64,000 nucleotides of DNA from Acidobacteriota bacterium (GCA_016934295.1 JAFGTD010000101.1:12334-76333), one strand, 5' to 3'; shown: positions 6,213 through 40,036, counted from the stretch's first letter. The notes: generated from the sequence alone by a model not told the origin. Program-made: numbers and translations.

Positions 6213-7319
6213 TTAGAATTCAAGGTCCAGCCCGGGGGCATTCAATTCGTCACACAGTGCCTGCAGGGATTTTTGAACCGCGGGCGGTATTTCTACTCCG
6301 TCCCGTGCTACACGGACTTCATTCCCGTAGGCTTTTTCTCCCGGAGTGTATATCTTTTCTTCCCCGGGAATTTTTCCGGACTCGCGCAGTTCCCTTAGAA
6401 TTTTCCCGGTCGTTTCCCGGAATTGCTTCTGCGGCAGGAAATGGTCGATATTGATTGCCAGAAAAAAATGCCCGATGCGTGAAGGCTGCGGATTCCCGGA
6501 CTTGTCCGAATCGTGCAATTCCGAGAGGAAGGCTCCATTCTGGAAGGCGGCCGAAAAAATCTCGACCGCGGCCGCAAGACCGTACCCTTTATGCCCGCCC
6601 ATCTGTTCTCCGCCGCCGCCAAGCGGCAACAGTGCGGCGTTGCCCCTGTCGATCTCTTCAATCAACCGGCTGCTTTCGGCAGGAAAGGACCCATCCTTCC
6701 CAATAACCCATCCCGGCGGAATGGTTTCTCCGTTGCGGGCGGCCACTTCAAGCCTGCCTCTCGGAACAACCGACGTAGCGGCATCAAAGGTAAATGCAAA
6801 AGCTTCATCGCTTGGTGCGCTGATCGCTATCGGATTCGTGCCCAGTAGAGGTTCCGATCCGAATGTCGGGGCTACGGATGGATGGGCATTGGAGAGGCTC
6901 ATCCCCAACATCCCCTCGTCCGCCGCCATCCGGGTGTAATAACCGGCGACCCCGTAATGACTGGAATTCCTGACGGCAACCGCCCCCAGTCCATTTGCCC
7001 GGGCCTTTCCAATGGCCGTCTTCATCGCGTGGTAACCGGCCACCATGCCCATCCCGTTGCCGCCGTCCATGACCGCGGTCGTCGGCGTTTCATGCACGAG
7101 AACCCAGTGCGTAACGGGCAGCTGCAGACCGGCCTTGATCCGGTCATAGTACATTTTAAGGTGGGCGATCCCGTGCGAGCGAACTCCGTAGAGGTCCGAT
7201 GCAAGAAGAACATCCGCGACAATAATCGCATCCTCACGGGGCACGCCCATTTTAACAAGAGCCCCGATCATGAATTCCGTCAACCGTTTTGCCGGCACGT
7301 ATACGCTTCCATCAGCCAT
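6213..7319 (-). CDS. Ldh_2 family (malate / L-sulfolactate / 2-hydroxyacid) NAD(P)H-dependent dehydrogenase
   Basis: 368 aa. Conserved Ldh_2 motifs (SHGIAHL, AVRNSSHYGVAGYY, GTNPIAISAP). ATG at 7319. Confidence 0.8.
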   Translation of the reverse strand: MADGSVYVPAKRLTEFMIGALVKMGVPREDAIIVADVLLASDLYGVRSHGIAHLKMYYDRIKAGLQLPVTHWVLVHETPTTAVMDGGNGMGMVAGYHAMKTAIGKARANGLGAVAVRNSSHYGVAGYYTRMAADEGMLGMSLSNAHPSVAPTFGSEPLLGTNPIAISAPSDEAFAFTFDAATSVVPRGRLEVAARNGETIPPGWVIGKDGSFPAESSRLIEEIDRGNAALLPLGGGGEQMGGHKGYGLAAAVEIFSAAFQNGAFLSELHDSDKSGNPQPSRIGHFFLAINIDHFLPQKQFRETTGKILRELRESGKIPGEEKIYTPGEKAYGNEVRVARDGVEIPPAVQKSLQALCDELNAPGLDLEF

Positions 7320-7338
7320 AAATTAATTTCCCTAAAAC

Positions 7339-7370
7339 AAATTGGCGCCGATCCGGCCTGTCGCCAATTT
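7339..7370 (-). terminator. stem-loop AAATTGGCG-N14-CGCCAATTT between the glcD-like and Ldh_2 genes (possible attenuator/terminator)
   Basis: Perfect 9-bp inverted repeat seen directly. On the minus strand it is followed by GTTTTAGGG, a weak U-tract. It overlaps the stop codon of the upstream gene. Confidence 0.3.
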
Positions 7371-8751
7371 AATCTTCAAACATTTTGCCCGGATTTAGAA
7401 TATTAAGCGGATCCAGCGCATGCTTGATGCGCCGCTGGACATCCACGGACACCGTTCCCAGCGCATGCTCGAAATACGGGCGCTTGAGAACTCCGACGCC
7501 ATGCTCGCCCGAAAGGGTTCCTCCCACAGAAAGCGCCGCTTCAAAAATCTCACCCATCATCCTTTGGACCTTGGACCACTGCTCCGGGTTTCTTTTATCA
7601 AAAAGAATATTCGGATGCAGGTTTCCATCCCCGGCATGACCGAATATCGCAATCGGGAGACCGTGTTTGGCGCTGATTCCGCGCAGCCGCTCCACAACCT
7701 CCGGGATCGCACTGCGCGGTACCGTGATGTCTTCGCCAAGCTTGTTCGGAGCTTTGCGCGCCAACGATGACCCGACGGAACGGCGCGCTTTCCATAATCC
7801 GTCCCTTTCCTCCCCGGTTTTCGCTACCTTGACCGTCCGGGCGCCGCTCTCCCTGCAGATCCGCCCTATGGCGTCTATTTCCCGAACCACGGTGGATTCG
7901 TCGGACCCGTCCGTTTCTATTATCAGAACAGCTTCGACATCCGTCGCCAGGCCCAGGTGCATGGCTTCCTCGATACAGACAATGGCCGTCTGATCCACAA
8001 GCTCCAGGGTGGCCGGTACGATCCCTTCGGCCAGGATAGCATTCACCGTATGGGACGCGTTTGCCAGAGAATCAAATTCGGCAAGGGCGGTTCTGACTTG
8101 AGTGGGTCGGGCAACCAGGCGGAGTAGCGCCTCCGTGATCAGGCCGAGCGTTCCCTCCGATGAGGCGAACATGGAAGTCAGGTTGTACCCGGTCACATCC
8201 TTGATCGGTTTGCCGCCGGTCTTTAAAATTCTGCCGTCCGCAAGCACAACGGTCAGTCCCAGTAAATAATTGCTTGTAACCCCATATTTCAAACACCGCG
8301 GACCGCCCGCGTTACAGGCGATATTTCCGCCGATTGTGGAATGCCGGATACTCGAAGGGTCGGGAGGGTAAAAAAGACCCTGCTTCTCGACTTCCGCCTG
8401 CAGATCGGCGGTGACGACTCCCGCCTCAGCCTGGACGGTTGCGTTTTGTGCATCTATCTCCAGGATTCTGTTCATCCGGGTGAAGCATATTACAATACTC
8501 TCGCTGTTGATCGGGACCGATCCCGCGGCCAGCCCCGACCCCATCCCGCGGGCAACCAGCGGAATGCGGGCCTCGGCGGCCAGCTTCACTATTTCGCTTG
8601 TCTGACCGGTCGTTTCCGGGAGAACAACCGCCCTGGGAACGCCTTCGGCAAACGTACCGTCGTAGCTGTATACGGCAAGGTCTTCCGGAGTGCAGAGAAC
8701 GCCGTCATAACCCAAAATCTTTGCTAGTTTTTCAATCATTCTGCCGTCCAT
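7369..8751 (-). CDS. FAD-linked oxidase, GlcD / D-lactate dehydrogenase family
   Basis: FAD-binding PCMH domain plus C-terminal FAD-oxidase domain. Start probably MDGRMIEKL, preceded by a G-rich RBS; the ORF track extends to 8772. Overlaps the upstream FeS subunit gene, suggesting translational coupling. Confidence 0.8.
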   Translation of the reverse strand: MDGRMIEKLAKILGYDGVLCTPEDLAVYSYDGTFAEGVPRAVVLPETTGQTSEIVKLAAEARIPLVARGMGSGLAAGSVPINSESIVICFTRMNRILEIDAQNATVQAEAGVVTADLQAEVEKQGLFYPPDPSSIRHSTIGGNIACNAGGPRCLKYGVTSNYLLGLTVVLADGRILKTGGKPIKDVTGYNLTSMFASSEGTLGLITEALLRLVARPTQVRTALAEFDSLANASHTVNAILAEGIVPATLELVDQTAIVCIEEAMHLGLATDVEAVLIIETDGSDESTVVREIDAIGRICRESGARTVKVAKTGEERDGLWKARRSVGSSLARKAPNKLGEDITVPRSAIPEVVERLRGISAKHGLPIAIFGHAGDGNLHPNILFDKRNPEQWSKVQRMMGEIFEAALSVGGTLSGEHGVGVLKRPYFEHALGTVSVDVQRRIKHALDPLNILNPGKMFED

Positions 8752-10012
8752 CCCCACCCCCGTATGCTTCATCCAATAAAGTAACCGGGTGCACGACGCG
8801 CGCCGGTGTTCCGCGCCGCTGCAGGCCGGTTTTCAGCTGCATCCGGCATCCGGGACATCCTGAAGCGATAATGTCCGCTTCCGTTTCCTCAATATTATCA
8901 AGCTTCCTGTCGAGCACCTTCCGGGAAGTGTCATAATGCGTAATCAGCTGGCTCCCTGCAGAGCCGCAGCACCAGTCGGCTTCCGGCATCTCGACAAATT
9001 CCAGGCCGTCTATAAGAGATAAAAGCTTCCTCGGCTCTTTCCACACCTTCTGAGCACGACGAAGGTGACAGGGATCGTGATACGTTACCCTGGCTTCAAT
9101 GCGGCCGGTCGGTTTTTTCAGGGGAATCCCCGCAAGGAATTCGCTTACATCGCGCACTTTACTCCGAAATGCAGCCGCACGATCGGCCCATTCAGGATCC
9201 CGGGCAAAAAGAGAATCATATTCTTTTAAAGTCGAACCGCATGTGGCGCAGTCGGCCACGATCACATCAACATTGAAGCGTTCGAAAACAGCGATATTCT
9301 GTCGTGCCTGGCTCAGCACCAGATCCATGCGTCCGTAGCCGCGAGCAGGCATCCCGCAGCATTCGATATCTTTTGGCGTTATAACGGTGCATCCATTGCG
9401 GGCCAGCACACGCAGGGTTGCGGCGCTCTGTTCCGCAAAAAGCAGGCTCTGCGCACAACCGAGAAAAAACCCAATGCGATATCGTGTCTCGCCATGCGCC
9501 TCGGTTATTTCCGGCAGGACCCGTCGCAACGGCCTCTGCGGAATCCTCGGCAGCATCGCTTCAAGGTCCCGTATTCGATCCGGCAGCAGGCGGTTGAGTC
9601 GTAAAAAGTAAACCAGGCGTCGAATCCCCAGTTTCTCATACAATCGCAACGGCAGCATTGCAAGCTCCAGACGCCCTGCTTTCGACAGCAATCCTTTGAA
9701 AATTACCTCTTTCCACTTTTTCGGCTGCCGCTGCTCCTGGACGTACCGCATTGAAAGTGCGAGGTTTGCGGGCTGGATACCGACGGGACAGATATCATTA
9801 CAGGCCATGCAGGCGAAACAGCCGTACATCTCTTCGATGAGGTTCGGAGAAAGATCCAGTTTCCCTTCCAAACCTTTGCGAGTGAGAGCAACACGCCCCC
9901 GTGGGGAAGCGGTTTCTTTGAGATATTCGCGATACGTCGGACAGACCGCCAGGCATAATCCGCAGCGGATACAGTTGAGATATGTGGATTCTTCCGGCTT
10001 TTCTAGTTCCAA
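8732..10012 (-). CDS. FeS oxidoreductase with two 4Fe-4S motifs and two CCG (HdrD/GlcF-like) domains; partner of the FAD oxidase
   Basis: CIRCGLCLAVCP and CFACMACNDICP ferredoxin motifs. C-terminal Cys-rich CCG repeats (CCGMPA, CCGSAG). TTG start. Confidence 0.75.
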   Translation of the reverse strand: MELEKPEESTYLNCIRCGLCLAVCPTYREYLKETASPRGRVALTRKGLEGKLDLSPNLIEEMYGCFACMACNDICPVGIQPANLALSMRYVQEQRQPKKWKEVIFKGLLSKAGRLELAMLPLRLYEKLGIRRLVYFLRLNRLLPDRIRDLEAMLPRIPQRPLRRVLPEITEAHGETRYRIGFFLGCAQSLLFAEQSAATLRVLARNGCTVITPKDIECCGMPARGYGRMDLVLSQARQNIAVFERFNVDVIVADCATCGSTLKEYDSLFARDPEWADRAAAFRSKVRDVSEFLAGIPLKKPTGRIEARVTYHDPCHLRRAQKVWKEPRKLLSLIDGLEFVEMPEADWCCGSAGSQLITHYDTSRKVLDRKLDNIEETEADIIASGCPGCRMQLKTGLQRRGTPARVVHPVTLLDEAYGGGDGRQND

Positions 10013-10430
10013 AACAATTAATCCTGATACCGGTTAAACCGGTTTTCGAATCGATACATGTATCTGTTGCCCGCAATAATCATGCATCATGATACAAGAA
10101 GCCATTAGTCGGAAGCCAGAAGATCAACAATACCTCCCAAAAACAATAAACATGGACACCCATTGTTTTTGGGCTGTAAAAAGCAATCCTCAAAAATGTG
10201 GACATCCCCGTTTTATTTTCTGTATCTTTTTTATTTTCATATTTTTATGGGAATCGAAGGCTAATAGTCCTTATTCGGTTGAATTATGGGTGTCCAGAAT
10301 TTTTTTATGAAAAATCATACTCTATTTCATTTGATGGAATCTTTTTTCGTAAGGTGAAATATATTTCTTTAAAAGCAGGTTCATTTGGCAACTATCTGGA
10401 TCTGGATATTATTTGCCTATTCGAAAGTGA

Positions 10431-10486
10431 TTGACATAAAGGAGGCTGGTTAGCTATTATGAAACTTTGTTCCGCATAATGGAACA
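10431..10486 (+). promoter_or_regulatory. sigma70-like promoter (TTGACA-18-TATTAT) overlapped by operator ATGAAAC-N13-ATGGAACA containing TTCCGCATAATGGAACA
   Basis: Hexamers seen directly. An almost identical -35/-10/operator arrangement recurs at 17204-17257. Confidence 0.45.
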
Positions 10487-10599
10487 AAATGGTTTCATAA
10501 TACAGCTCTTGTAAGCATTTGCCACTAGGTTTCGCCACCGCTCAGCCGGCAATGCGACGATTACTAATAAGAAATACGGGTGAAGAAGGAGAATTCTAA

Positions 10600-11676
10600 A
10601 TGAGTGGAAAAATCACGTACGAGGCGCTGACGGCCTATACCACGAAAGTCCTGGAAAAACTGGGGTATCCCAAAGCTCAGGCGGAAATAACCGCATGGGT
10701 TCTGGTGGAAGCCGATGCGCGCGGCGTACCGTCCCATGGAGTCGGACGACTTCCTTTCTATGAAACGAACATAAAGAAAAAATTTGTCTTTCCGGATGCG
10801 GAGCCTGAAATTGTCCACGAAACTCCCATTTCCCTGACAGTCGACGGCCACAACGGTATCGGCGGCCATATTTCCAAATTCGCCATGGATCGTATTATAG
10901 AAAAAGCCGGGAATTCCGGCGCCGGATTCGCCGCCGTTCGCAATTCCAGTCATTTTGGAATGGCCGCTCTCTGGGCCGAAATGGCCTCGAAGGAAGGTTT
11001 CATAGGAATGTCCTTCACCAATACCCGGATCTGCTCAATCGTGACTTTCGGACGGGAACGCATCCTTGGAACCAATCCCATCTGCTATTCGATTCCGACA
11101 ACGGGTAAAACCCCATTCACACTGGATATGGCAACGACCACAGTGGCTCACGGAAAAGTTGAGGTTCACGAGCGCAGAAATAAACCGATGCCTATCGGCT
11201 GGTGTGTCGACGAAGAAGGCAACGACACGACAGACATCCATGCGTTCCAGAAAATCTATCGTGAAAGCAATATGGGCGGACACCTCTTCCTCGGCGGCGC
11301 CGGTGAAGAACTCGGCGGGCATAAAGGTTACGGGCTTGGTTTGCTGGTAGATGTTCTCTGCTCCGGGATGTCGATGGGATCATGGTGCCGCGATACCTTC
11401 AGCCCGACCAACGGCTGCGGCGTGACACATTTCTTCGGAGCTCTTAACACCAATCTTTTCGGAGACCCCAAAGCGATCACGGCCCATGTGGAATCCATCC
11501 TTCAGCAGGTGCGTGACAGTGAAAAGGCCCCTGGTCACGACCGGATCTTCATTCATGGAGAAAAAGAGCTGGAAAAACGGGCGGAATCCCTGGCGGAAGG
11601 CGTTCATGTCGACGACGACGAGTTGAATATGCTCGCCGGTTATGCCGAAAAATTCGGGCTGGAGAAACTCCGGTAA
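10600..11676 (+). CDS. Ldh_2 family 2-hydroxyacid dehydrogenase (second copy)
   Basis: 358 aa. Same motif set as 6213-7319 (SHGVGRL, AVRNSSHFGMAALW, GTNPICYSIP). AGGAGAA RBS. Confidence 0.8.
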   Translation: MSGKITYEALTAYTTKVLEKLGYPKAQAEITAWVLVEADARGVPSHGVGRLPFYETNIKKKFVFPDAEPEIVHETPISLTVDGHNGIGGHISKFAMDRIIEKAGNSGAGFAAVRNSSHFGMAALWAEMASKEGFIGMSFTNTRICSIVTFGRERILGTNPICYSIPTTGKTPFTLDMATTTVAHGKVEVHERRNKPMPIGWCVDEEGNDTTDIHAFQKIYRESNMGGHLFLGGAGEELGGHKGYGLGLLVDVLCSGMSMGSWCRDTFSPTNGCGVTHFFGALNTNLFGDPKAITAHVESILQQVRDSEKAPGHDRIFIHGEKELEKRAESLAEGVHVDDDELNMLAGYAEKFGLEKLR

Positions 11677-11703
11677 AAACCCTCACCGCAGAAGAGCAAA
11701 AAA

Positions 11704-11760
11704 CGCAGAGGTTTTCAGAGCTTGAACGCATTACTCTGAGAACCTCTGCGTTTTTTATTT
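11704..11760 (+). terminator. rho-independent terminator
   Basis: CGCAGAGGTTTTCAGAG...CTCTGAGAACCTCTGCG stem followed by TTTTTTATTTT, immediately after the Ldh_2 stop. Confidence 0.8.
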
Positions 11761-11914
11761 TCTGGTCGACAGAAAGAATAAACACCGGTCTTCATATATT
11801 CCCTGCCTATTAGAACAATCCCGGTGATTTCAACAGAATGTGCAAGGCTCGCTAAGCGCTATCGGGATACAGCCTCGCGTGAAATTTGCCGGTCCCGAGG
11901 CTTCTCCTTTATGT

Positions 11915-14389
11915 CTACTGATTGATATGGGCTAAAATGCTTCGTCCGGGATCCAGCAGGACACTGTTCGGGCGCATCGGAAGCTGCACGGTTGTTTTTA
12001 CCGGCCCGGTCCCTACCGTTTTTATGGTTCCAAGGTACGCCAATCCTCCTTCAACCTGTGCATATAAAGGTAAATGCACCCGGAAAGATTCGCCCACATT
12101 CGACTGGGTAAGAGTCATATCAAGTTTTGTCTTCCCGTCCCCGGCATCCGATATCTGATAACTGAAATCATAGGACGGGATACGGGTTCCGTAAACCCAT
12201 TGATCGAAGAACCAGTCCATTGGTTCCCCTATGTGCTTTTCAACCGTTTTCCGGAAATCACCTGTAGAGGCGTTCTTACCTGCGTAGGTTTTCATAAAAT
12301 CCTTCATCATGGTGATAAATCGAGCATCGGGATTCTTTGTGCTTGGGTCGTACATCATCACGCGCAGCATTTCTATAACGTAGGCGCCTTTTTCATAGAT
12401 TATTCTGCTGCTTCCCCCTCTATATGTGTCCAGTTGGGTATTCATCCACAGCGGACCTGCGTCAACCGGTCTGTAGCCGAATCTGTTGTTGGAAAGAAGC
12501 CACTGTCGCTTCATCCCCCAGAATTCGTTCAGGGATCCCGGTTGGAATTGTTTCAGGTACATTGCACAGGAAAATTCTGCAAGCCCTTCGGAAAGCCATT
12601 GGTCATGATAGGTGTTCCATCCAACCAGGTGCCCCCACCACTGGTGCGCCATCTCATGAACTGCGACCGTCTGGTAGAATCCCCGTTCTTCTCCCATGTC
12701 CTGGAGTCCCAAACTGTTTCGCGTTGTCGCATCCAAAAGCGAATCATAGGGCAAAAAAATCAGGTTGGGCCAACTCTGGCCGTAACCCCTGATTGGCTGC
12801 TCCGTAACGGAGATGGTTTTGAAAGGCAGCGGCCCGTATAAAAATTCAAAAAGACTAAAAGCCTGAAAGCTTATGCCTGCAGCGTATTTTACATTTTGGG
12901 CAGTGTTAAATCCGCCGGTCATAATACCCATTTGATTGATTTCCCTGCCATACCCCGCGAGCTCGGCGACCGACAGTTCCATTTCCAGCTGCTTCAATTC
13001 GTTCGGTATTTCTTTTCCGGAATAGGCGGTAACCGTTAAGGATTGAGAGGAATTGGACGATTCAACGAAATCACCGTAGTTAAAACCGAAGACGCCCAAA
13101 GGGATTTCCGATTTCCAGATTGTTACAAGTTCCTTTTTCTTTTTTTCGGATGAAACCAGGGAGCCGCTTGCTAAAAATTTATAGTTTTTCGGTGAATGTG
13201 CTTTTAAGCGAAACATGGTCCTGTCATCGAGGAATTTAAAGCTGGGGAACCATGAAGCACGTGAAGTGACGTAATAAAGCCCTCCGCCTTCCTTGTAGAT
13301 TATCCTGCTGTCGCTGGTGGAATCTTCCTGGTAGGTGATTTTAAGCTTGCCTGTTTCCCCCGGGGTTGATGGCCCCGGTAGAATCAGCCATGGATCGCTG
13401 TCGAGGTCGCGGGCTTCCTGAATAAAACTGAGGGTATTGCCGGTGCTGTCTTCTATTGAGCTTATGCGAAGCACCCCATTGAGATTAAAGGGAAGAACCC
13501 GTACCGGTGCGTCTTTGACAACATACTCCAGGTCCACAACGGCCGAAATCTTTCTATTATTGGGGACCGACAAATCAATGTCCATGGATGAGCAGTGTAC
13601 GAGTGAGCGATTATGATCGGGTCGGGATGTCTCTGCATATTCGGAAGCAAGATGAAATCCGGACATCCACTCATAATAGTCTCCCGGATTGAGGTGAAGT
13701 AGAATGACCTCTTCACCTTTGCTGGAATCCGGAAGCAGGAGGGAGTCCCGATTCCAGCTTATGTGAAAAAGCAGATCGCCCGACTCCTTTCCTTTAAAGT
13801 CAGCCAGGAAAAATCCTTTGCTGGTGCTGTCGGTCAGATCGGCCAGCATGCGTGCGGCCAGGTTTCGCATTGTCGGGTGCCCTTTGCGTCGGTTATTTAT
13901 CCAATCATTATAGTTCTTACTGTAAAACTTCTGTTTCGACGCAATATCGGTTTTATCCTTTTCATTCCGGGATGGCTTGACCTGCAGAATCTTCTTTAAT
14001 TCCACAACCGTATCATCCGTAAAGAAAAAGACCGCTTTGCTGAAAGTATCAACAAGATCCGGCTCTCCGGTAAATCTGGCCATCTGATACTTATGGATAA
14101 ATGTAGGGGGCGTAAGTTCAAATGTACCCTCGCCTTCAAACTGTGCTGCCAGAATGCGTCCTTCTACAGGAGCGGCAAAAGTTAAATGGCCGCTTTTCAA
14201 GGTGAAGGTTGCCGCATCCCGTTTAAATACAACATTTTCCGTGAGTGCAACATCGCCGCTTCCTTGAAGTGACCGTAGTTGCTGGTAAACGGCAAGCAGT
14301 TCTTTTGAGGAAGATTCAGATAAATCCTCGGCAAAAGTACCGATACTGATACCCATAAATCCCATCAGCAGAAAGGCAATACGCTTCAT
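11915..14389 (-). CDS. secreted M1-family zinc aminopeptidase-like metalloprotease
   Basis: HEMAHQWWG...(18 aa)...E gluzincin motif. Signal peptide MKRIAFLLMGFMGISIGTFA. Start set at the internal ATG (14389) with AGGAGG RBS; the ORF track extends to 14590 without an RBS. Confidence 0.75.
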   Translation of the reverse strand: MKRIAFLLMGFMGISIGTFAEDLSESSSKELLAVYQQLRSLQGSGDVALTENVVFKRDAATFTLKSGHLTFAAPVEGRILAAQFEGEGTFELTPPTFIHKYQMARFTGEPDLVDTFSKAVFFFTDDTVVELKKILQVKPSRNEKDKTDIASKQKFYSKNYNDWINNRRKGHPTMRNLAARMLADLTDSTSKGFFLADFKGKESGDLLFHISWNRDSLLLPDSSKGEEVILLHLNPGDYYEWMSGFHLASEYAETSRPDHNRSLVHCSSMDIDLSVPNNRKISAVVDLEYVVKDAPVRVLPFNLNGVLRISSIEDSTGNTLSFIQEARDLDSDPWLILPGPSTPGETGKLKITYQEDSTSDSRIIYKEGGGLYYVTSRASWFPSFKFLDDRTMFRLKAHSPKNYKFLASGSLVSSEKKKKELVTIWKSEIPLGVFGFNYGDFVESSNSSQSLTVTAYSGKEIPNELKQLEMELSVAELAGYGREINQMGIMTGGFNTAQNVKYAAGISFQAFSLFEFLYGPLPFKTISVTEQPIRGYGQSWPNLIFLPYDSLLDATTRNSLGLQDMGEERGFYQTVAVHEMAHQWWGHLVGWNTYHDQWLSEGLAEFSCAMYLKQFQPGSLNEFWGMKRQWLLSNNRFGYRPVDAGPLWMNTQLDTYRGGSSRIIYEKGAYVIEMLRVMMYDPSTKNPDARFITMMKDFMKTYAGKNASTGDFRKTVEKHIGEPMDWFFDQWVYGTRIPSYDFSYQISDAGDGKTKLDMTLTQSNVGESFRVHLPLYAQVEGGLAYLGTIKTVGTGPVKTTVQLPMRPNSVLLDPGRSILAHINQ

Positions 14390-14659
14390 ACAACCTCCTA
14401 ATCGAACAGCATAATCATAGAATGGCGCAAATAGACTATGCGTCCCAATCGAGACAACCTGAATGTTGAAATTTAAGCTTTCTATTAATATAAACGAAAA
14501 CCGAGGGTAGTTGCCTACTAATGTCGTAAAAAATAAAATTTCTAATCTAACGCTTGTAGAAGCAGGAATGGAGCCATCGGCAGACAGCATCGGTGACTCC
14601 TACGACAAAGTTTACGAACTTGGACTGGCAGGCCTTGTCTTTTTCGGAATGAACACGAT

Positions 14660-15649
14660 TTACCAGCTCTGCATATCCAGTAGAGCTTTCATTACTCCTT
14701 CATCATGCCGTTCATACATCCGGTAGGCTTCGGCCGCCTCCCGGACCGGCATCCTGGGAGTTGCCAACGGAGACAGTTCATCTTTGTGCTTCAGATAAAG
14801 GTCCAGCGCCCGTAAAAGGTAATCCGACCAGTCCGGAGTCACCGTAGCCATGAGAAGGGCGTTCTTGCGGAAAAAAACTTCATACTCCAGCGCGTAGACC
14901 GTCTGGTCGGGCACGCCGAATGCGACTACGGTGCCGTATTTGCGCACAAGTTCCAGGCAATCGTTGATCGTGTCCATCTGATGCCCGACGGCTTCGATAC
15001 AGATATCGGGCCGGTTCCATTCTCCCGCTGAAAGACGAGCTGCCTGAACGACCTCGATGCTGCGGCTGCTGATCGTACGGGCGACGCCCAAATTGGCCGC
15101 AATACGGCAGCGTTCCCTGCAGGGATCGATTCCAACAACGGAACCGGCCCCCCTGAAGACCGCATACCAGCAGAGCAACAGTCCCATAGGCCCCAGGCCC
15201 GCGACAGCAATCGATTTTCCCCCGATGTCTCCCAGCCTGTCTATTGCATGCATCACGGTCGACAGCGGTTGTATCAGGCAGGCCGCCCCGAAATCTTCAA
15301 TCTCTTCGGGCAGAACCACCGCCTTGGATGCCCGGGCAAGAAAAATCTCGGCCAACCCTTTGTTCTCGTCCGGTATGGCCAGAACCTTGTCTCCGGGACG
15401 GAAACGATCCGATGCACTCTCTATTACTTCCCCCACGCATTCGTGAATCGGCGCCGCCGGCTCCAGCGGATAGGTCCGGCATCTTTTATTCCCTGCAAAA
15501 AACGCGATATCGCTTCCGCATAAGGCCCCCCAACAGGTCCGCACCAGGATTCCTTCCCCGTCACCGGAAGACAATTGCGGCACGGGTACCTGAATCGGTT
15601 CAAATTCCCTGGGGCGGACAACCTGGAGCGCTTTCATCATCATAGTCAC
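14660..15649 (-). CDS. zinc-dependent medium-chain alcohol/polyol dehydrogenase (MDR family)
   Basis: Catalytic Zn motif around HECVGEV. Rossmann motif GLGPMG. Confidence 0.75.
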   Translation of the reverse strand: MTMMMKALQVVRPREFEPIQVPVPQLSSGDGEGILVRTCWGALCGSDIAFFAGNKRCRTYPLEPAAPIHECVGEVIESASDRFRPGDKVLAIPDENKGLAEIFLARASKAVVLPEEIEDFGAACLIQPLSTVMHAIDRLGDIGGKSIAVAGLGPMGLLLCWYAVFRGAGSVVGIDPCRERCRIAANLGVARTISSRSIEVVQAARLSAGEWNRPDICIEAVGHQMDTINDCLELVRKYGTVVAFGVPDQTVYALEYEVFFRKNALLMATVTPDWSDYLLRALDLYLKHKDELSPLATPRMPVREAAEAYRMYERHDEGVMKALLDMQSW

Positions 15650-15762
15650 TTATCCGTTAATTGCTATTTTCCAATGAGCTAATAATCCGGATTCCATCGC
15701 TGATTTATTCATTGGCATAACAATTGAAGATTAAAGATTGAAAATTAAAAACCGGCCCGCAT

Positions 15763-17049
15763 TCATTCCTGGACAACCGGAAGCGTTAAAAGCGCATGTG
15801 GAACAATCAGAACGTCGCTTGAAAAACCGATTGCTTTGCCCGCTATCCGCAATGCTTCTTCCATGGTAGCGGCGGGAATCATTTTACAATCCGCGACCGC
15901 ATCCGGACATTCACTGCCCACAATAATCACATTCGTTTTTTCCAGGACTTTCGCGATTACAAAAGCACGCTGCTGCCCGGGCGGGTATCCGTTCTTTCGC
16001 GCGTCCTCCAGGATGCACGCAACATCCGGAGCGTCCCGCATCGCCGCATAAAACCTCTGCTCGCCCACGCCGCTCCCCACGCCCTCCCGGCAGGGAGCCG
16101 GGATGATGAAATATCCACCGGGGCGAACGACACAAGTCGGGGCAAAAAACAGATACGACGGAGCCCGGCTTGCCTGGTACAGGTTGCTGTCTTTTGGAAA
16201 GCCCACACCTCCAACTGCTATATCGAATTTGTGCGGAATTGCAACCTCGTAAACCGAACGGGCAAATGCAACCTGTTCACGGAAAGCCTCGTCCGGATCC
16301 CCTGCCGTCACCCGCAGCAGGCGTTTGTCGTCATCAAGGACGACGTTGAGAATAAACCGGAGCCCGGCAAGGCGCGCTGCTTCCGTTACCGCTTCATGAA
16401 ACGGATTGCCTTCGATACATCCCAACCGGGTACCCGGATGATCCACAAAAGCGGGCCCATGGGTATGGGCGATCAAGTCTTCGCCGGCCGCCCCAACAGC
16501 CAGCGTCTTGCGACCGCCGGAATAACCGGCATATTGATGCGGCTCTACAATTCCCGTGGCAATGACAATATCGGATTCAACAACCGTGCGATGCACGGAA
16601 ACAGGAACGCCTCTATTTGTGGTTCCCAGATCCGCCAGTGCCGCCGGATTCTGCGGTTCGTTATCAATCACCCGGTAACACGAAACAATGTCGGCCCCAA
16701 GCTTTGCAATCTTTTCTTCGTGCGTCGAAGGACGGTGCATCCCGACACCGCAGATCAGCGTAATGTCTTCATCCCGCACACCACCTGCCTGCAATTCGGC
16801 AAGCAACGGCGGAACAAGCAGATGATCGGGGCATGCGCGGGTAACATCGGTAAAAACAATACAGGCACGATTCCCTTCCCGAACAGCATGGCGCAAAGGC
16901 GGCATCCCAAGCGGATGTGCCAAGGCCTCTGCAACGGCAGCGCGCTCATCTTCTATCGGCGGTACAGGTTTCGAAACCGCCACTGTAGCCCGCATCCCGG
17001 ACGGAATTGAAAATCGAAGCGATTCTTTCCCATAGGGCACTGAATACAT
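15763..17049 (-). CDS. larA: LarA-like nickel-pincer-dependent lactate (2-hydroxyacid) racemase, DUF2088 family
   Basis: 428 aa. Resemblance to LarA including the EPHQYAGYSGGRK segment (Lys that tethers the NPN cofactor in LarA) and His-rich segments. No larBCE in the window. Confidence 0.6.
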   Translation of the reverse strand: MYSVPYGKESLRFSIPSGMRATVAVSKPVPPIEDERAAVAEALAHPLGMPPLRHAVREGNRACIVFTDVTRACPDHLLVPPLLAELQAGGVRDEDITLICGVGMHRPSTHEEKIAKLGADIVSCYRVIDNEPQNPAALADLGTTNRGVPVSVHRTVVESDIVIATGIVEPHQYAGYSGGRKTLAVGAAGEDLIAHTHGPAFVDHPGTRLGCIEGNPFHEAVTEAARLAGLRFILNVVLDDDKRLLRVTAGDPDEAFREQVAFARSVYEVAIPHKFDIAVGGVGFPKDSNLYQASRAPSYLFFAPTCVVRPGGYFIIPAPCREGVGSGVGEQRFYAAMRDAPDVACILEDARKNGYPPGQQRAFVIAKVLEKTNVIIVGSECPDAVADCKMIPAATMEEALRIAGKAIGFSSDVLIVPHALLTLPVVQE

Positions 17050-17203
17050 ACTTATAAAGATAACATTTATTTACAATGAGTTATAAGCTTATAACAATTT
17101 CACATTGCGAAAGCTTGTTCCGTAGGGCAGAATAAATTCCTATAGACAACTTTGTCAATTTTCAACTATTCCTTAGGATCATATTTCCGATATGCGAAAT
17201 TGA

Positions 17204-17257
17204 TTGACATAGAGTGGAATTTAACTTAATATGGAACGCGATTCCGCATAATGGAAC
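17204..17257 (+). promoter_or_regulatory. sigma70-like promoter (TTGACA-16-TAATAT) overlapped by operator ATGGAAC-N13-ATGGAACA containing TTCCGCATAATGGAACA
   Basis: Same architecture and 17-nt identical core as 10431-10486. Lies upstream of the cupin operon. Confidence 0.45.
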
Positions 17258-17269
17258 AGACTGGAGGAT

Positions 17270-17638
17270 TTGTATATGAGCAAACCGCCTTTTGTAAGGG
17301 CTGCTGATGTGGAAGGCGAATTTCGGAACCCGCCGCGCACTTCTAAGCTTCTTTTGGCTCCCAAATTCGGCGGAGTCAAAAATGTATCGATGGGAATGAA
17401 TATTACAGAGGTCGGAAGCCAGATTCCCGACCATACCCACACAGAATCCGAAGAGGTACTTTTCCTGATCAGCGGGAAGGCACGGATCGTTATGGAAGGT
17501 TCAGAACCCTATGAAATCGGTCCTGAGACCGCTTTCTACTCACCGCTTGGTGTAAAGCACAGGGTTGAGAATATTGGCGACGAACCCTTAAGAATCGTCT
17601 GGTGCTATTGCCCGCCACTACCGCAACACTGTGAATAA
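17270..17638 (+). CDS. cupin-domain protein
   Basis: 122 aa. Two-His cupin motif region (IPDHTHTESEEVLFLISG ... GVKHRVEN). GGAGGA RBS. Confidence 0.6.
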   Translation: MYMSKPPFVRAADVEGEFRNPPRTSKLLLAPKFGGVKNVSMGMNITEVGSQIPDHTHTESEEVLFLISGKARIVMEGSEPYEIGPETAFYSPLGVKHRVENIGDEPLRIVWCYCPPLPQHCE

Positions 17639-17668
17639 ACTACTTTTTTTCTCAAGGAGAATGCAGTC

Positions 17669-18592
17669 ATGATTTTTGAAGAAACCCGTAAAGCATTGAA
17701 GAGACTGGGACTTCCTGAAGGCGACGCTTTCGATCTTCCGTCTTCAGACAAAAGATTCCCTGACGGAGCGCACTTCCGCATTGAATGCCCGACCGTCAAT
17801 TCCGCTGTTGCTATTGAAGCCCTTCTGAACAGATCGCTGGAGATGGGCATCACGATCAACCGTATCACGGAAACTTTCGGTATGTTCCGCCATACGAGAG
17901 AGGAAATCAAAGAAATGTGCAAGCTCTGCCACGACTACGGCTGTGAGCTGCTGCTTTCCACCGGCCCCCGCGCCACCTATGATACCGGCGCCACCGTTCT
18001 GTCCGAACAGGGCGTACGCGTCAGCTATCGTCTTCGCGGCCAGGAACAGCTGATTCGTGCGATCGAAGACATCAAACGCGGCTATGAACTCGGCTGCCGC
18101 GGCTTTCTGATTTATGACGAAGGCATGCTCTGGGTCGTCAATGAAATGCGTAAAAACGGCGATCTTCCCAAGGAAATCATTTTCAAGACCTCGGCCCACC
18201 TCGGCCACTGCAACCCGGCATCCGTAAAGCTCCTGAAAGACCTGGGCGCCGACAGCATCAATCCGATCCGCGATCTGCAGATCCCGATGCATGCCGCCAT
18301 CCGCCAGGCAGCCGGCGACACGCCGCTGGATATTCACACAGACAACCCTCCGGGATCCGGCGGATTCATCCGTACGTACGAAGCGCCCGAAATCGTCCGC
18401 GTAGCGGCTCCTCTGCATTGCAAGACCGGGAACTCCGTTATCGGCGGCCATGGTCAAATGACCGGTGCGACCGAAGGAAAGAGAATGGCGGAACAGGCTG
18501 CCATCATCGTCGAGATGATTAACCGGTACTATCCGGACTTCAAGCAGTCCGGAAAGAACGTAGCAGACATGCGCATTCCCGTCGTCGTTTAA
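17669..18592 (+). CDS. conserved hypothetical protein, function unknown
   Basis: 307-aa ORF with GGAGAA RBS, co-oriented and tightly spaced with the cupin and creatininase-family genes. No family recognised from sequence. Confidence 0.5.
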   Translation: MIFEETRKALKRLGLPEGDAFDLPSSDKRFPDGAHFRIECPTVNSAVAIEALLNRSLEMGITINRITETFGMFRHTREEIKEMCKLCHDYGCELLLSTGPRATYDTGATVLSEQGVRVSYRLRGQEQLIRAIEDIKRGYELGCRGFLIYDEGMLWVVNEMRKNGDLPKEIIFKTSAHLGHCNPASVKLLKDLGADSINPIRDLQIPMHAAIRQAAGDTPLDIHTDNPPGSGGFIRTYEAPEIVRVAAPLHCKTGNSVIGGHGQMTGATEGKRMAEQAAIIVEMINRYYPDFKQSGKNVADMRIPVVV

Positions 18593-18641
18593 GTTCTGAC
18601 CGTAATCTGTGGGCTTCACGCCCGCAAGTAAAGGAGGAATC

Positions 18642-19625
18642 ATGGGTAGTAAATGGGGAGATTGGGGAGAATGGGAACTGCCTCCGAAAGGCGGACTCAT
18701 GGAAACCCCGGGAGTCTATCTCCAGACCATGAATATGACGCAGATCAATGAACGTCTCAAGACAAACGATCTGATCATTATTCCGGTTGGAAGTACCGAA
18801 TGTCACGGGGCGTCTCAACCAATCGGCGAAGACACCTTCCTTGTCACGCGTATGGCCGAGCAGGTCGCCGCGAAGATGGGGTGCACGATCGCGATGCCGG
18901 TGTGGTACGGATCTCATCCGTTCAACCATCTGGGTATGCCGGGCACGGTTGTCGTTCCTGAAGACGCATTCCTGGCGAACCTGCGGGCCATCATCGCCGG
19001 CCTGTGGAACATGGGCTTCAGAAAGCAGATCTTTCTGAACGGCCACGGGCAGGAAGAAGTCATTCCGCTCGCACTCCACCAGTGGGCGAAAAAGTATCAG
19101 GTGCCCTCGGTCCTGATTTCGCTGCACTGGGAGACGGTCATTCATGATCATCTGAGGACCAAGGAGTACGGAGGCCCCTTCGAGACGCAGTTCTCGCATG
19201 CGGACGAAGCGGAAGCGTCTTATTCTCTTGCGCTCTTCCCCGAGTTCTGTGACATGAAACTGGCTGTGGACAACAAACCCTCCGGATTCATTCCCAAGGG
19301 TCACGTGGACGGTGGGGGTGAAGTTTATCACAGACCCATCAGAGGACACGAGCATATCGGCCTGAGCGGTTCGGAAATCAACGTCTATCCGGAAGGAGTC
19401 ATCGGAAGTCCGACACTTGCCAGTGCGGACAAGGCTTTTGCCGGTCTCAATGAGCTTCTCGATTACATGTGCAAGCTCATCAACGACATCATGACCGCCT
19501 TCCCGGCCGGAGAGCTGCCGCCAGCGGATAAAGTCACGCAGCGCGATCCCAAGGAAATTGAGGATCTGCTGAAGGGCCCGCTGAAGGGTGGAAAACATAT
19601 TTATACCCTTTCATATCCACCCTAA
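18642..19625 (+). CDS. creatininase-family amidohydrolase (creatinine amidohydrolase / ArfB / MftE-like)
   Basis: IIIPVGSTECHG motif, the family signature (LxxPxGxxEQHG), plus downstream His/Glu metal ligands. Start at ATG 18642 behind AAGGAGGAAT; the ORF-track GTG start at 18609 is less likely. Confidence 0.7.
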   Translation: MGSKWGDWGEWELPPKGGLMETPGVYLQTMNMTQINERLKTNDLIIIPVGSTECHGASQPIGEDTFLVTRMAEQVAAKMGCTIAMPVWYGSHPFNHLGMPGTVVVPEDAFLANLRAIIAGLWNMGFRKQIFLNGHGQEEVIPLALHQWAKKYQVPSVLISLHWETVIHDHLRTKEYGGPFETQFSHADEAEASYSLALFPEFCDMKLAVDNKPSGFIPKGHVDGGGEVYHRPIRGHEHIGLSGSEINVYPEGVIGSPTLASADKAFAGLNELLDYMCKLINDIMTAFPAGELPPADKVTQRDPKEIEDLLKGPLKGGKHIYTLSYPP

Positions 19626-19686
19626 ACAGCTGTGGTGCCTGACCGGCGGTTTCCGCAGGCGCCACAATGTATTTTACTGAACACCC

Positions 19687-19764
19687 GGAACACGCCGTTG
19701 GGAGGTTTATGCTGCATTCCTTGCGGCGTGTTCCTTACGCCGGCCCGCAAAAGCCGGCTTTTGT
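19687..19764 (+). terminator. tandem stem-loops after the operon (GGAACACGCCG...CGGCGTGTTCC; GCCGGC-N8-GCCGGC-TTTTGT)
   Basis: Perfect 11-bp inverted repeat, then a second GC hairpin followed by a T-tract. Confidence 0.6.
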
Positions 19765-19820
19765 ACATATCCCGCGCAAACGGGTCCTAATAAGAAGCAT
19801 TTCACATAAGGAGGTTCGCT

Positions 19821-20612
19821 TTGTCCCAGTCAGTGCGCGCCGTTGAGAGAGCGCTCGATATCCTCCTCTGCTTCACACGTGAAGAACCCACCCGCTCCCT
19901 GACTCAAATAGCAGAGTCCATTCAAATGTCCAAGACCACGGTGCACCGGCTCCTGGCGACGCTTGAAAGCAAGCGCTTCATTACCCGGGATAAAGTAACC
20001 GGTTTCTACCGCCTCGGTTTCAGGTTTATTGAAATGGCCTCTCTGGTCCTGCAGGACGTGGACCTCCACCGCTGGGCCCATCCCTATCTGGAAAACCTTT
20101 CGGAAGAGTGTGGAGAAACAGTAGACCTGTCGATCCTTGACGATTCCCACGTAATCTACCTGGATGTCATAGAAAGCCCCCAGCGCGTTAAGCTGGCCGC
20201 CGCGATCGGACAACGCCTGCCGGCCTTATTCACGGCATCCGGAAAAGCGCTGCTGGCATATATCCCCGAAGAACAGGTTCTTAAAATAATCGAAAAGAAT
20301 CTGGCCGAAAGCACCGATCGCGAACCGGCGTCCATTCCCGAAATTCTGGCGGACTTAAAGCTGACGGCTGAACGCGGATATGCTATCTCCCAGCAGGAGT
20401 ATGAAAAGGACATCAACGCCGTCGCCGCGCCTATATTCGACGTGAACCATCGTCCGATCGCATCCATCGCAATCGTCGGCCCCTCGTTCCGGTTTACCGA
20501 GGACCGCCTTCCCGCCCTCGGAGAATCCATCCGCAGAATGACCCAGGTCATCGCCGAAGAAGTCGGACTCGTTGCTCTGTCCGCAATCGTCACCCAGACC
20601 CGCAACCGGTAA
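19821..20612 (+). CDS. IclR-family transcriptional regulator
   Basis: N-terminal wHTH (LTQIAESIQMSKTTVHRLLATL) and C-terminal IclR effector domain. GGAGG RBS. Confidence 0.8.
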   Translation: MSQSVRAVERALDILLCFTREEPTRSLTQIAESIQMSKTTVHRLLATLESKRFITRDKVTGFYRLGFRFIEMASLVLQDVDLHRWAHPYLENLSEECGETVDLSILDDSHVIYLDVIESPQRVKLAAAIGQRLPALFTASGKALLAYIPEEQVLKIIEKNLAESTDREPASIPEILADLKLTAERGYAISQQEYEKDINAVAAPIFDVNHRPIASIAIVGPSFRFTEDRLPALGESIRRMTQVIAEEVGLVALSAIVTQTRNR

Positions 20613-21845
20613 CTAATAACCGCCCGACATGAAAAGCATAATGGCAAACGCCGTTAGAAGCTCTTGCTCGGTGAAGGCGCAGTGCCCGTAACGCACCACC
20701 GGTATGTTCAGATGGTACAGCAGGGAACCGCCGAACAAAGTTTTTAAGTTATAGAGGGTCTCATGCCAGTACGGAACGATGGGATCCTGCGTCGTGTGCA
20801 GCGTGACCAGGGGATCGGAAAGTCTTCCCGAGGCCTGGAGACCGCTTTCAATATTATCGAGAGCCTCGGTTTCGGCGCAAAACCGGTCGATGCGCCAGTT
20901 CAAACGCCAGTCATTTCTCGATCCGAAATACCAGCGGCGGCTGTTGTCGTAGGGGCCGCCGTCCAGTTTCACAATGGCATCGTTGGTCGCAAAGATGCCA
21001 TACCAGAGAACTCCCAGAATGGTTTCCTTCGATAAAGGATCGTCGGGGTTCGCCGGCGCGTTTGCGACCCGAAGAAGCTGTCGCTTCGCGGATGGATCTG
21101 ATTGTATCGCCGATACAACCATCGGCGCGACGATTCCATCCCAAACATCCTGATTCACCAGGACATCCGGTATGCCTGCCGGAGTCGGTTTTTCCAGGAC
21201 AAACAGCGGTCCCAGTTCCGGTATTCCCTGAAGTTGGACTTCAACATCTTCCCAGAAATCCGGGAAGAAATAATTGAACAGGACCAGAAAATCCCCAAGG
21301 TAATTGATCTGTTTTCTGAAATTTCCGACGGGGCCGCAGATCGCGAGTCCTCCGTCGAATATACCGGGATTCCTTTCAAGTGCGAGCGCCGTAACCAGCC
21401 CTCCCTCGGAGGCTCCTACCAGATAGATATGGTTGGTCTCAGGATATTGAGTTAAAAAATAATCTGTCAATGCCCTAATATCTTCCACTGCCTGAGGAAT
21501 GGCCAGACCGTTGCTGCTGTAACTCGTGGTTGCAAAGGCATAACCCAAACCGGTCAGGATCTTGGAAACCGTTTGGTTACTACCCGGCGGTATTTCATAG
21601 TCTACAACCATCGGTTTCTTGATTGCGGGGCTTATATATCCGTGAGCAAAAACAACAAGATCATGGTTCCATGGAACTTGGTCAGGCATGACTATAAGGT
21701 TGCAGCTCGTTCCAATTTGATGCATCCCTTCGGGACAAAATGGTTCATCGGCTTTTATCGGCAATGCCGTCATCAGGGAAAGGATCAGGCATGAAAACAT
21801 GATCCCCCCGATCCGAGTTTTTTCATTCTTAGCAATTTGAAGCAT
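20613..21845 (-). CDS. secreted alpha/beta-hydrolase (esterase/lipase-like)
   Basis: Signal peptide. Nucleophile elbow GASEGG. Convergent and abutting the IclR gene. Confidence 0.65.
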   Translation of the reverse strand: MLQIAKNEKTRIGGIMFSCLILSLMTALPIKADEPFCPEGMHQIGTSCNLIVMPDQVPWNHDLVVFAHGYISPAIKKPMVVDYEIPPGSNQTVSKILTGLGYAFATTSYSSNGLAIPQAVEDIRALTDYFLTQYPETNHIYLVGASEGGLVTALALERNPGIFDGGLAICGPVGNFRKQINYLGDFLVLFNYFFPDFWEDVEVQLQGIPELGPLFVLEKPTPAGIPDVLVNQDVWDGIVAPMVVSAIQSDPSAKRQLLRVANAPANPDDPLSKETILGVLWYGIFATNDAIVKLDGGPYDNSRRWYFGSRNDWRLNWRIDRFCAETEALDNIESGLQASGRLSDPLVTLHTTQDPIVPYWHETLYNLKTLFGGSLLYHLNIPVVRYGHCAFTEQELLTAFAIMLFMSGGY

Positions 21846-24413: not shown

Positions 24414-24829
24414 GGACGACCTCCTGGATACATTGAAATAAAACTTTTATCATAATGCCGTTTCCGCTCTGCGTCAATGATTTTCACACTACGGAAACAC
24501 ACTAGCCATAATTACCGGGAATTTCCATCCCGATTCCTGGTAAATATAATCGAATCCTAAGAGAAATATCAGTCTAAATTCGGAATTTCCGGTGTTTATC
24601 CTGCTCAAAAACGAAAAATATATTTAAAGGCGGGGGAATATCGGGAAATCATCGCTTCGAGGTGAGAATTTTTCATCAGCCATATATCCGACACTTCGGT
24701 TTAAAGTTCACAGTACAACCCGGATAGGGTATATTCTTAGTAAGTTCCGGGATAGAACGCCCCCCTCGGAGAATCTTGGATGATTCGATAACCTTTTTCT
24801 TATTCAAGTAGCTTTCGGGAGAAATTGCC

Positions 24830-37445: not shown

Positions 37446-37497
37446 AAAAACCGTTTCCCGTTTCCCGTTCCCCGTTTCCCGTTGAATACAACGGGAA
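37446..37497. repeat. tandem heptamers (CCGTTTC x4.5) followed by hairpin CCCGTT-gaatac-AACGGG in the fwdD-fwdB spacer
   Basis: AAAAAACCGTTTCCCGTTTCCCGTTCCCCGTTTCCCGTTGAATACAACGGGAACC seen directly. Confidence 0.6.
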
Positions 37498-39977: not shown

Positions 39978-40036
39978 AAGGTTAATTCCGTTCAGCGTTT
40001 CCCGTTTCCCGTTTCCCGTTCAGGGTTCAGGGTTAT
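39978..40036. repeat. tandem heptamers (CGTTTCC x3 then CGTTCAGG GTTCAGG) in the mptG-like / mtd spacer
   Basis: AAGGTTAATTCCGTTCAGCGTTTCCCGTTTCCCGTTTCCCGTTCAGGGTTCAGGGTT seen directly. Confidence 0.6.

Follow-up and report, generated by a model that had tools for sequence, protein, structure and literature searches.

The 64,000-nucleotide (nt) stretch JAFGTD010000101.1:12334–76333 of an Acidobacteriota bacterium (assembly GCA_016934295.1), here termed the window, contains two intergenic regions about 6.7 kb apart that display the same promoter and operator layout. One lies in front of the second of two Ldh_2-family dehydrogenase genes (Ldh2_B), the other in front of an operon that begins with a cupin gene. 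An earlier note, made from the sequence alone, described the pair as a duplicated promoter-operator module and proposed an IclR-family protein encoded downstream as its repressor. The genes concerned are listed below. The gene calls in the note (Ldh_2, cupin, a 307-amino acid (aa) protein, creatininase-family and IclR) are all correct by Pfam scan.

6213–10012, minus strand: glcF-like Fe-S subunit, glcD-like FAD oxidase and first Ldh_2 (Ldh2_A), a putative divergent operon (Pfam; order conserved in Acidobacteriota and Chloroflexota)
10600–11676, plus strand: second Ldh_2-family dehydrogenase, Ldh2_B (PF02615, E = 5.5e-109)
14660–17049, minus strand: LarA-like nickel-pincer racemase/epimerase homologue and Zn-dependent dehydrogenase, divergent from the cupin operon (Pfam, NCBIfam; conserved order)
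17276–19625, plus strand: cupin operon, three genes (Pfam)
17276–17638, plus strand: cupin gene (Pfam)
17669–18592, plus strand: 307-aa divergent U32-like TIM-barrel protein, without a Pfam match (U32 link from relatives; structure model)
18609–19625, plus strand: creatininase-family hydrolase that scores as an IolN equivalog (NCBIfam NF041098, 496.3 bits; cutoff 245)
19739–19758, plus strand: terminator-like hairpin and T-run between the hydrolase gene and iclR
19821–20612, plus strand: IclR-family transcription factor, candidate repressor (PF09339, E = 7.4e-16, residues 7–57; PF01614, E = 2.4e-43, residues 76–244)
22704–24413, minus strand: aldehyde:ferredoxin oxidoreductase (AFOR) (Pfam; next to the cluster in both phyla)

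The two regions share an exact 17-nt sequence, TTCCGCATAATGGAACA, as the note had claimed. Both copies are on the plus strand, at 10470–10486 and 17242–17258, with a spacing of 6772 bp. The longer element at the −10 is also present in both regions (ATGAAAC-N13-ATGGAACA from position 10459 and ATGGAAC-N13-ATGGAACA from position 17231), and the first 17-mer copy holds the palindrome TGTTCC-N7-GGAACA described earlier. A local alignment of the two regions shows a likeness of about 65 bp, from GAAAnTGATTGACATA through the operator, which is weaker farther upstream.

An exact 17-mer pair alone is near the chance level. We estimate that about 0.24 such pairs are expected in 64 kb on both strands, and the window has another, unrelated exact pair (10643/15937) inside coding sequence. 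Identity of the 17-mer was dropped as sufficient evidence for these reasons, and because 58 of 71 metagenome matches are chance matches (see below). A 3-mismatch match at 47812 is also taken as chance; it has no three-box context and is missing from the hits of the PWM, array and pattern scans described below. The context of the two 17-mers, in contrast, is not at the chance level.

Each of the two sites is a three-box operator built from a 7-nt half-site, RYGRAAC. The boxes run forward, reverse and forward with their starts 10 bp apart; the 17-mer represents boxes 2 and 3. Both operators reach from the −10 hexamer to about +20. The claimed TTGACA/−10 promoters are found at both places by promoter scan (scores out of 12 below). 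Sites were scored with a 31-nt position weight matrix (PWM), trained solely on orthologous sites from 17 other genomes, and with a half-site array model, likewise trained solely on other genomes. The promoters and box arrays of the window are as follows.

10431–10460, plus strand: Ldh2_B promoter, TTGACA (10431–10436), 18 nt, TATTAT (10455–10460); promoter scan 11/12
10459–10485, plus strand: Ldh2_B operator, ATGAAAC-TTT-GTTCCGC-ATA-ATGGAAC; PWM 35.9, array score 30.7
10492–10498, minus strand: extra inverted half-site GTTTCAT, 6 nt past box 3 and outside the 10-bp register
17204–17232, plus strand: cupin-operon promoter, TTGACA (17204–17209), 17 nt, TAATAT (17227–17232); promoter scan 10/12
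17231–17257, plus strand: cupin operator, ATGGAAC-GCG-ATTCCGC-ATA-ATGGAAC; PWM 49.6, array score 30.8
10324–10360, no strand assigned: glcF-side four-box array, ATTTCAT-TTG-ATGGAAT-CTT-TTTTCGT-AAG-GTGAAAT; array score 33.2
17158–17129, minus strand: larA promoter, TTGACA (17158–17153), 18 nt, TATTCT (17134–17129); promoter scan 10/12
17123–17097, minus strand: larA three-box operator, ACGGAAC-AAG-CTTTCGC-AAT-GTGAAAT; three-box match, array score 21.4, above the null 95th percentile
17184–17220, plus strand: cupin −35 four-box array, TTTCCGA-TAT-GCGAAAT-TGA-TTGACAT-AGA-GTGGAAT; array score 15.3 (null 95th percentile 14.9)
24477–24449, minus strand: AFOR promoter, TTGACG (24477–24472), 17 nt, TATGAT (24454–24449); promoter scan 10/12
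24497–24461, minus strand: AFOR four-box array, TTTCCGT-AGT-GTGAAAA-TCA-TTGACGC-AGA-GCGGAAA, which surrounds the AFOR promoter

The pattern RYGRAAN-N3-NTTYCRY-N3-RYGRAAN has 5 matches in the window where 0.02 are expected (250-fold), and all are in 10013–10599 and 17050–17275. These two intergenic regions amount to 813 bp, or 1.3% of the window. They also contain the top six PWM matches, with scores of 49.6 (17229), 35.9 (10457), 16.5, 11.1, 8.8 and 8.7, against a shuffle maximum of 14.1.

The glcF-side array has alternating boxes in a 10-bp register and contains two overlapping matches to the three-box pattern. Its score is the top four-box score in the window (null maximum 18.6). On the minus strand it comes after a TATATT −10-like hexamer (10363–10358); the glcF-side promoter is only a putative one, because its −35 in the window is poor. 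In the cupin −35 array, the third box position is the −35 hexamer of the cupin promoter, and a PWM match at 17182 (minus strand) supports this array. Modules face each way in both intergenic regions, so both appear to be divergent control regions. The AFOR promoter is probably a member of the same regulon. A search for further copies thus finds extra arrays at larA, on the glcF side, at the cupin −35 and at AFOR, while the exact 17-mer stays at two copies in the window. Of the regulated promoters, which appear to number at least four and likely five, the two copies described earlier probably mark the strongest two.

The sites were compared with a survey of IclR-family binding sites (Suvorova and Gelfand, 2021; PMC8222616). 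The survey gives GKTYCRY-W3-4-RYGRAMC as the group-1 consensus. It describes three-box sites whose boxes alternate in direction for 32 orthologous groups, and tandem sites 18–22 nt apart, consistent with tetramers, for 94 groups; a GTT-11-AAC site type is tied to sugar and sugar-acid catabolism. The sequence GTTCCGC-ATA-ATGGAAC at 10469–10485 fits the strict group-1 consensus, with two hits (both strands of the one palindromic site) where 0.04 are expected. The corresponding sequence ATTCCGC-ATA-ATGGAAC at 17241–17257 fits with A as the first base, as in the WTT-11-AAW type. The window sites are thus like group-1 sites in the RYGRAAC half-site, the GTTYCRY-W3-RYGRAAC core palindrome, the third alternating box and the location near a gene start. 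They are unlike the catalogued group-1 sites in having arrays of up to four boxes and in incorporating the −35 hexamer. The survey lists no Acidobacteria, and the sites found for Chloroflexi in its supplementary text are just of the mhpR type.

The protein encoded at 19821–20612 has a winged helix-turn-helix domain (HTH_IclR) at its N-terminus and an IclR effector-binding domain at its C-terminus. Its best PDB sequence match is the Thermotoga maritima IclR protein 1mkm (E = 1.3e-34), and its PDB relatives are all of the IclR family. An exact-protein look-up, with L or M as first residue, gave no match. All the Acidobacteriota orthologues share its recognition helix, MSKTTVHRLL, without change. 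A mapping of this helix to the contact rules of PMC8222616 was attempted and no conclusion was drawn from it; the numbering is not reliably transferable and M-S-K-T-T-V-H is not among the listed contacts. The stretch 19686–19758 (plus strand), upstream of the gene, holds a long GC-rich hairpin (GGAACACGCCG...CGGCGTGTTCC) and, after it, the terminator-like stem and T-run. The hairpin is also found in related loci L002 and L004.

Relatives of the 307-aa protein were searched for with one genome per species. This yielded 80 loci, 18 from Acidobacteriota and the remainder almost all from Chloroflexota. The cluster is kept in metagenome-assembled genomes of both phyla and consists of Ldh2_A-GlcD-GlcF, an optional Ldh2_B, ZnADH-LarA, the divergent cupin-307-aa protein-hydrolase genes, IclR and AFOR; Chloroflexota clusters additionally carry ABC transporter genes. 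The element ATGRAAC-N13-ATGGAAC is present upstream of the cupin gene in nearly all Acidobacteriota loci, often with the identical 17-mer. In an alignment of 23 distinct cupin promoters, the TTGACA is invariant, and the TA of the −10, the three box cores and the ribosome binding site are invariant or nearly so. Columns in the spacer and upstream are randomised, and changes saturate the flanks. The upstream columns TGTTCC..ATGCGAAA..TTGACA..GTGGAAT are also conserved (alignment A2), and this layout recurs in Chloroflexota.

The other sites show conservation as well. The Ldh2_B operator is kept in L004, L101 and L150 and is weaker in L014, L015 and L016. Comparative footprinting in relatives, which the note had proposed as a check, therefore displays box-specific conservation at both promoters (the 23 cupin promoters and the Ldh2_B orthologues). 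The larA promoters of 12 other Acidobacteriota keep TTGACAAA...TTATTCTGC...TGGAAC-N3-TTTCG-N4-RYGRAAC. Homologous glcF-side promoter-operators are found in L008, L015, L016, L101 and L105, and seven genomes keep the AFOR array (L002, L003, L005, L006, L007, L009 and L015).

Chloroflexota display the same layout with GAAAC-type boxes. In 65 of the 72 loci with a length of 6 kb or more, the top three-box array anywhere in the locus is at most 400 nt in front of a gene of the cluster. For the Chloroflexota subset, which was not used in training, the figure is 48 of 55. Three of the seven exceptions (L029 19932–19958, L054 19975 and L057 19985) are three-box sites behind TTGACA/TATACT-type promoters about 10 kb from the operon. 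The one in L029 stands in front of a lipoprotein-type solute-binding protein, and this suggests that a transporter is in the regulon there.

All 16 Acidobacteriota loci that extend far enough carry an IclR orthologue immediately after the operon (gap 122–302 bp), and 39 of 42 long Chloroflexota loci contain a gene of the IclR family. In Chloroflexota loci with iclR as the first gene of the operon, the module precedes iclR, and this implies autoregulation in those loci. A difference between the phyla was seen at the fourth half-site position (RYG[R]AAC): Acidobacteriota mostly have G (11/16 in box 2 and 14/16 in box 3) and Chloroflexota have A in about 90%. It parallels the recognition helix, MSKTT versus MHKST/LHKAT. 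The trend is anecdotal, because there are just two lineages.

The exact 17-mer was also used to scan metagenomes and was found in 71 stretches. In 13 of these it has the three-box and TTGACA context, and all 13 adjoin the cupin, Ldh2_B or GlcF gene of the cluster. The remaining 58 lack both this context and a cluster gene, and their G+C content ranges from 30% to 65%; they are chance matches of a 17-mer in so large a collection. The motif is therefore not a dispersed repeat, a possibility that had been considered earlier.

It is quite likely that an effector-released IclR repressor acting on three-box operators explains these sites. The protein encoded at 19821–20612 most likely binds the operators as a dimer or tetramer, and probably also the larA-like, glcF-like, cupin −35 and AFOR arrays. 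When bound it would block RNA polymerase. A small-molecule effector, presumably a substrate or intermediate of the pathway, would bind to the C-terminal domain and lead to release of the protein, to judge from the behaviour of the family. The local regulon would comprise glcF-glcD-ldh2A, ldh2B, larA-ZnADH, the cupin-U32-like-IolN-like operon and AFOR. Repression by promoter occlusion appears to be the best reading because the strongest sites extend from −10 to about +20 at promoters expected to be strong unaided, and the arrays over the −35 add to it. The proposal of a repressor operator is thus supported in silico by the −10/+20 position, the IclR consensus and the three-box fit, although the direction of regulation is predicted from site position. 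The nomination of the IclR protein as regulator gains support from its adjacency in 16/16 Acidobacteriota loci and from the family consensus, with binding itself a prediction. As to the suggestion that the Ldh_2 gene and the cupin operon form one regulon, sites are conserved at both promoters, and the regulon appears wider than claimed (larA, glcF and probably AFOR).

Several observations weigh against this interpretation. The IclR protein scores below every NCBIfam cutoff for the characterised subfamilies (bits/cutoff: BhcR 164/350; PcaR/PcaU/PobR, TIGR02431, 142/284.75; KdgR 141.6/275; IclR 128/380; AllR 117/406). It is therefore an unassigned family member to which an effector cannot be transferred. 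There is no sigma-70-like promoter or IclR box in 19626–19820, and iclR comes after the terminator-like hairpin. The AFOR array score of 10.5 is below the null 95th percentile, so it is not significant within the window alone. The strict group-2 form, TGRAAC-N3-4-GTTYCA (consensus TGRAACA-N1-2-TGTTYCA), has no match in the window, because box 2 ends in CG and not CA; boxes 1 and 2 share only the geometry (TGRAAC, 3 nt, nTTYC). The in-genome site scans covered only the 64-kb window. Finally, many Chloroflexota loci have two IclR paralogues with similar recognition helices, which makes the assignment of site to regulator ambiguous there.

The last two points are what favour a different regulator, either another IclR paralogue (the helices are of the form HK[SA]T[VT]HR) or a protein of another family, with the adjacent iclR as a bystander. 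This is improbable. The adjacent orthologue in the 16 Acidobacteriota loci is the sole IclR gene there by a homology search with the window proteins, a search in which other transcription factor families were not screened; the motif fits the IclR-family consensus rather than those of other families, and a site stands in front of iclR where that gene heads the operon. A slightly better case, still an unlikely one, can be made for the same protein acting as an activator, like PobR and PcaU, or having a dual role. Activators exist within the IclR family (PMC8222616), the four-box arrays around the −35 (17184–17220 and 24461–24497) sit where class II activators bind, and the glcF-side promoter in the window is without a good −35. 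Yet an activator at the strongest sites, from −10 to +20, would obstruct the polymerase, and promoters that match 10–11 of 12 consensus positions should need no activation.

The palindrome may instead act as RNA, in the form of a 5′-leader hairpin, attenuator or riboswitch-like element, since boxes 2 and 3 are within the transcribed leader and could pair as a 4–5 bp stem. This is very improbable: boxes of this kind are also found in non-transcribed DNA on the upstream side of the −35, box 1 is a direct repeat and not complementary, and the putative stem shows no compensatory pairs in the 23 cupin promoters, with values not above shuffled controls. An Rfam search of 9900–17400 (E ≤ 1) gave no relevant family, just a chance miRNA match. 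The least credible explanation is that the likeness arose by chance or through a recent segmental duplication, or belongs to a dispersed repeat, and has no regulatory meaning. The frequency of exact 17-mer pairs and the context-free metagenome matches described above are what speak for it. Both sites, however, are conserved box by box at orthologous promoters in many genomes of two phyla, and the three-box pattern, at 250-fold above expectation, is confined to promoter regions.

The proposed IclR repressor system can be compared with characterised systems. In PcaU and PobR of Acinetobacter, the operator is a palindrome with an external direct repeat, and binding requires this third box (Popp et al. 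2002, cited in PMC8222616). The window operators are alike in having three repeats, a palindrome and a direct repeat one helical turn off. PcaU and PobR differ in being activators of aromatic catabolism with GTNCG-type half-sites, whereas the window sites are at −10/+1. E. coli IclR and AllR and Pseudomonas putida TtgV, which are tetrameric repressors over the −35/−10 region, resemble the proposed system in occupying the core promoter, and tandem sites about two turns apart fit a tetramer; E. coli IclR and AllR show no orthology to the window protein by NCBIfam scores. KdgR of enterobacteria and Thermotoga is a local repressor of carbohydrate-acid catabolic genes, as the candidate here would be; the closest solved structure, 1mkm, is grouped with these proteins. 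The KdgR box is an A/T-rich GAAAC-type palindrome, with a probable half-site resemblance to the window boxes. The regulated genes differ, and the window protein is under the KdgR equivalog cutoff.

The hydrolase encoded at 18609–19625 passes the threshold for IolN (3-dehydro-scyllo-inosose hydrolase) and is thus a predicted counterpart of the enzyme in the inositol operon of Thermotoga maritima. That operon is controlled by the ROK-family regulator IolR (PMC3750489) and not by an IclR protein, and the partners in the window are different (cupin, U32-like, LarA-like, Ldh_2, GlcDF-like and AFOR). Among the window proteins scanned there is no scorer for IolG or IolO, and the Zn-dehydrogenase is far under the IolM cutoff.

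The 307-aa protein has no Pfam match even at E ≤ 10 and none in NCBIfam or in a PDB sequence profile search. It has 4378 homologues and displays 75% identity between Acidobacteriota and Chloroflexota. Of 42 diverse relatives, 30 weakly match Peptidase_U32. A first AlphaFold model was poor (pLDDT 61); a deeper alignment gave a TIM barrel with a pLDDT of 94.7. A Foldseek search with this model found just generic or distant TIM barrels, i.e. class II aldolases and the U32 protein Mk0906, with TM scores of about 0.45–0.5. Other U32-family proteins are O2-independent hydroxylases. Ldh2_B has a leader of about 133 nt and is 36% identical to the first Ldh_2 protein; an exact-protein look-up of Ldh_2 found just a 4.8-kb copy of the same locus. 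A literature search for this gene combination found no paper.

The LarA-like, Ldh_2, GlcDF-like and AFOR genes together with the hydrolase and the 307-aa protein suggest ring or C-C cleavage followed by oxidation of hydroxy-acid and aldehyde products. The operator arrays could mark one regulon whose genes encode a catabolic pathway, so far undescribed and probably anaerobic, that uncultured Acidobacteriota have in common with uncultured Anaerolineae, with the competition of sigma factor and repressor at the −35 as a further point of design; this is offered tentatively, as somewhat short of an even chance. The pathway may then include an IolN-type 1,3-diketone ring-opening hydrolase, the U32-like TIM barrel, the small cupin, a LarA-type racemase/epimerase, two Ldh_2 enzymes, the GlcDF-like oxidase and a tungsten-type AFOR. 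The mechanism itself, a local repressor of the IclR type with boxes typical of the family, is a standard one in bacterial regulation. A −35 hexamer that serves as a position of a four-box array, and is kept so across two phyla, would represent an unusual fixed competition between sigma factor and repressor for one hexamer. About a dozen genes of an unknown pathway, in five transcription units, would be tied into one regulon, in lineages for which experimental genetics hardly exists (Acidobacteriota, Anaerolineae). If the single-regulon pathway reading is true, the effector of the IclR protein would directly reveal the substrate. One soluble regulator and a 27-bp site would then provide a handle on it through effector screening, or a biosensor. 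The sites would also extend the motif catalogues of the IclR family to Acidobacteriota.

A second motif, with the core GGGTGTCC (often AATGGGTGTCCACAT), is found in 2–7 copies and both orientations in the same divergent intergenic regions. Its copies lie either in the stretch that separates the operator from glcF or in that separating the cupin promoter from the larA promoter. The window has 6 where 1.9 are expected; copies are at 10154–10161 (minus strand) and 10288–10295 (plus strand), with a degenerate one near 10199–10206. It is also found in L004 (5464–5676), L150 (4909–4996), L101 (900–1069) and L102 (4226–4428), and L004 and L150 have 16-bp tandem repeats. The motif could be the binding site of a second protein or a small repeat element. 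One copy is in the loop of a hairpin at 10136–10173 (minus strand), which has a 12-bp perfect outer stem, CCCAAAAACAAT...ATTGTTTTTGGG. This hairpin is part of an AT-rich leader of 310 nt that separates the glcF-side operator from the start of glcF.

A few other features of the window may be mentioned. An 891-aa protein with a C-terminal M1-peptidase domain is encoded at 11915–14590 (minus strand), between Ldh2_B and the Zn-dehydrogenase; the gene has no counterpart in the other loci and so looks like an insertion into the conserved cluster. A perfect 12-nt palindrome, GTTCCATGGAAC, formed by two abutting half-sites, is present at 21666–21677 inside an alpha/beta-hydrolase gene (20613–21845). 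It is absent from the hits of the array model and is probably there by chance. Two tandem heptamer arrays (CCGTTTC/CGTTTCC, 3.6–4.7 copies) are located 2.5 kb apart at 37451–37483 and 39996–40020.

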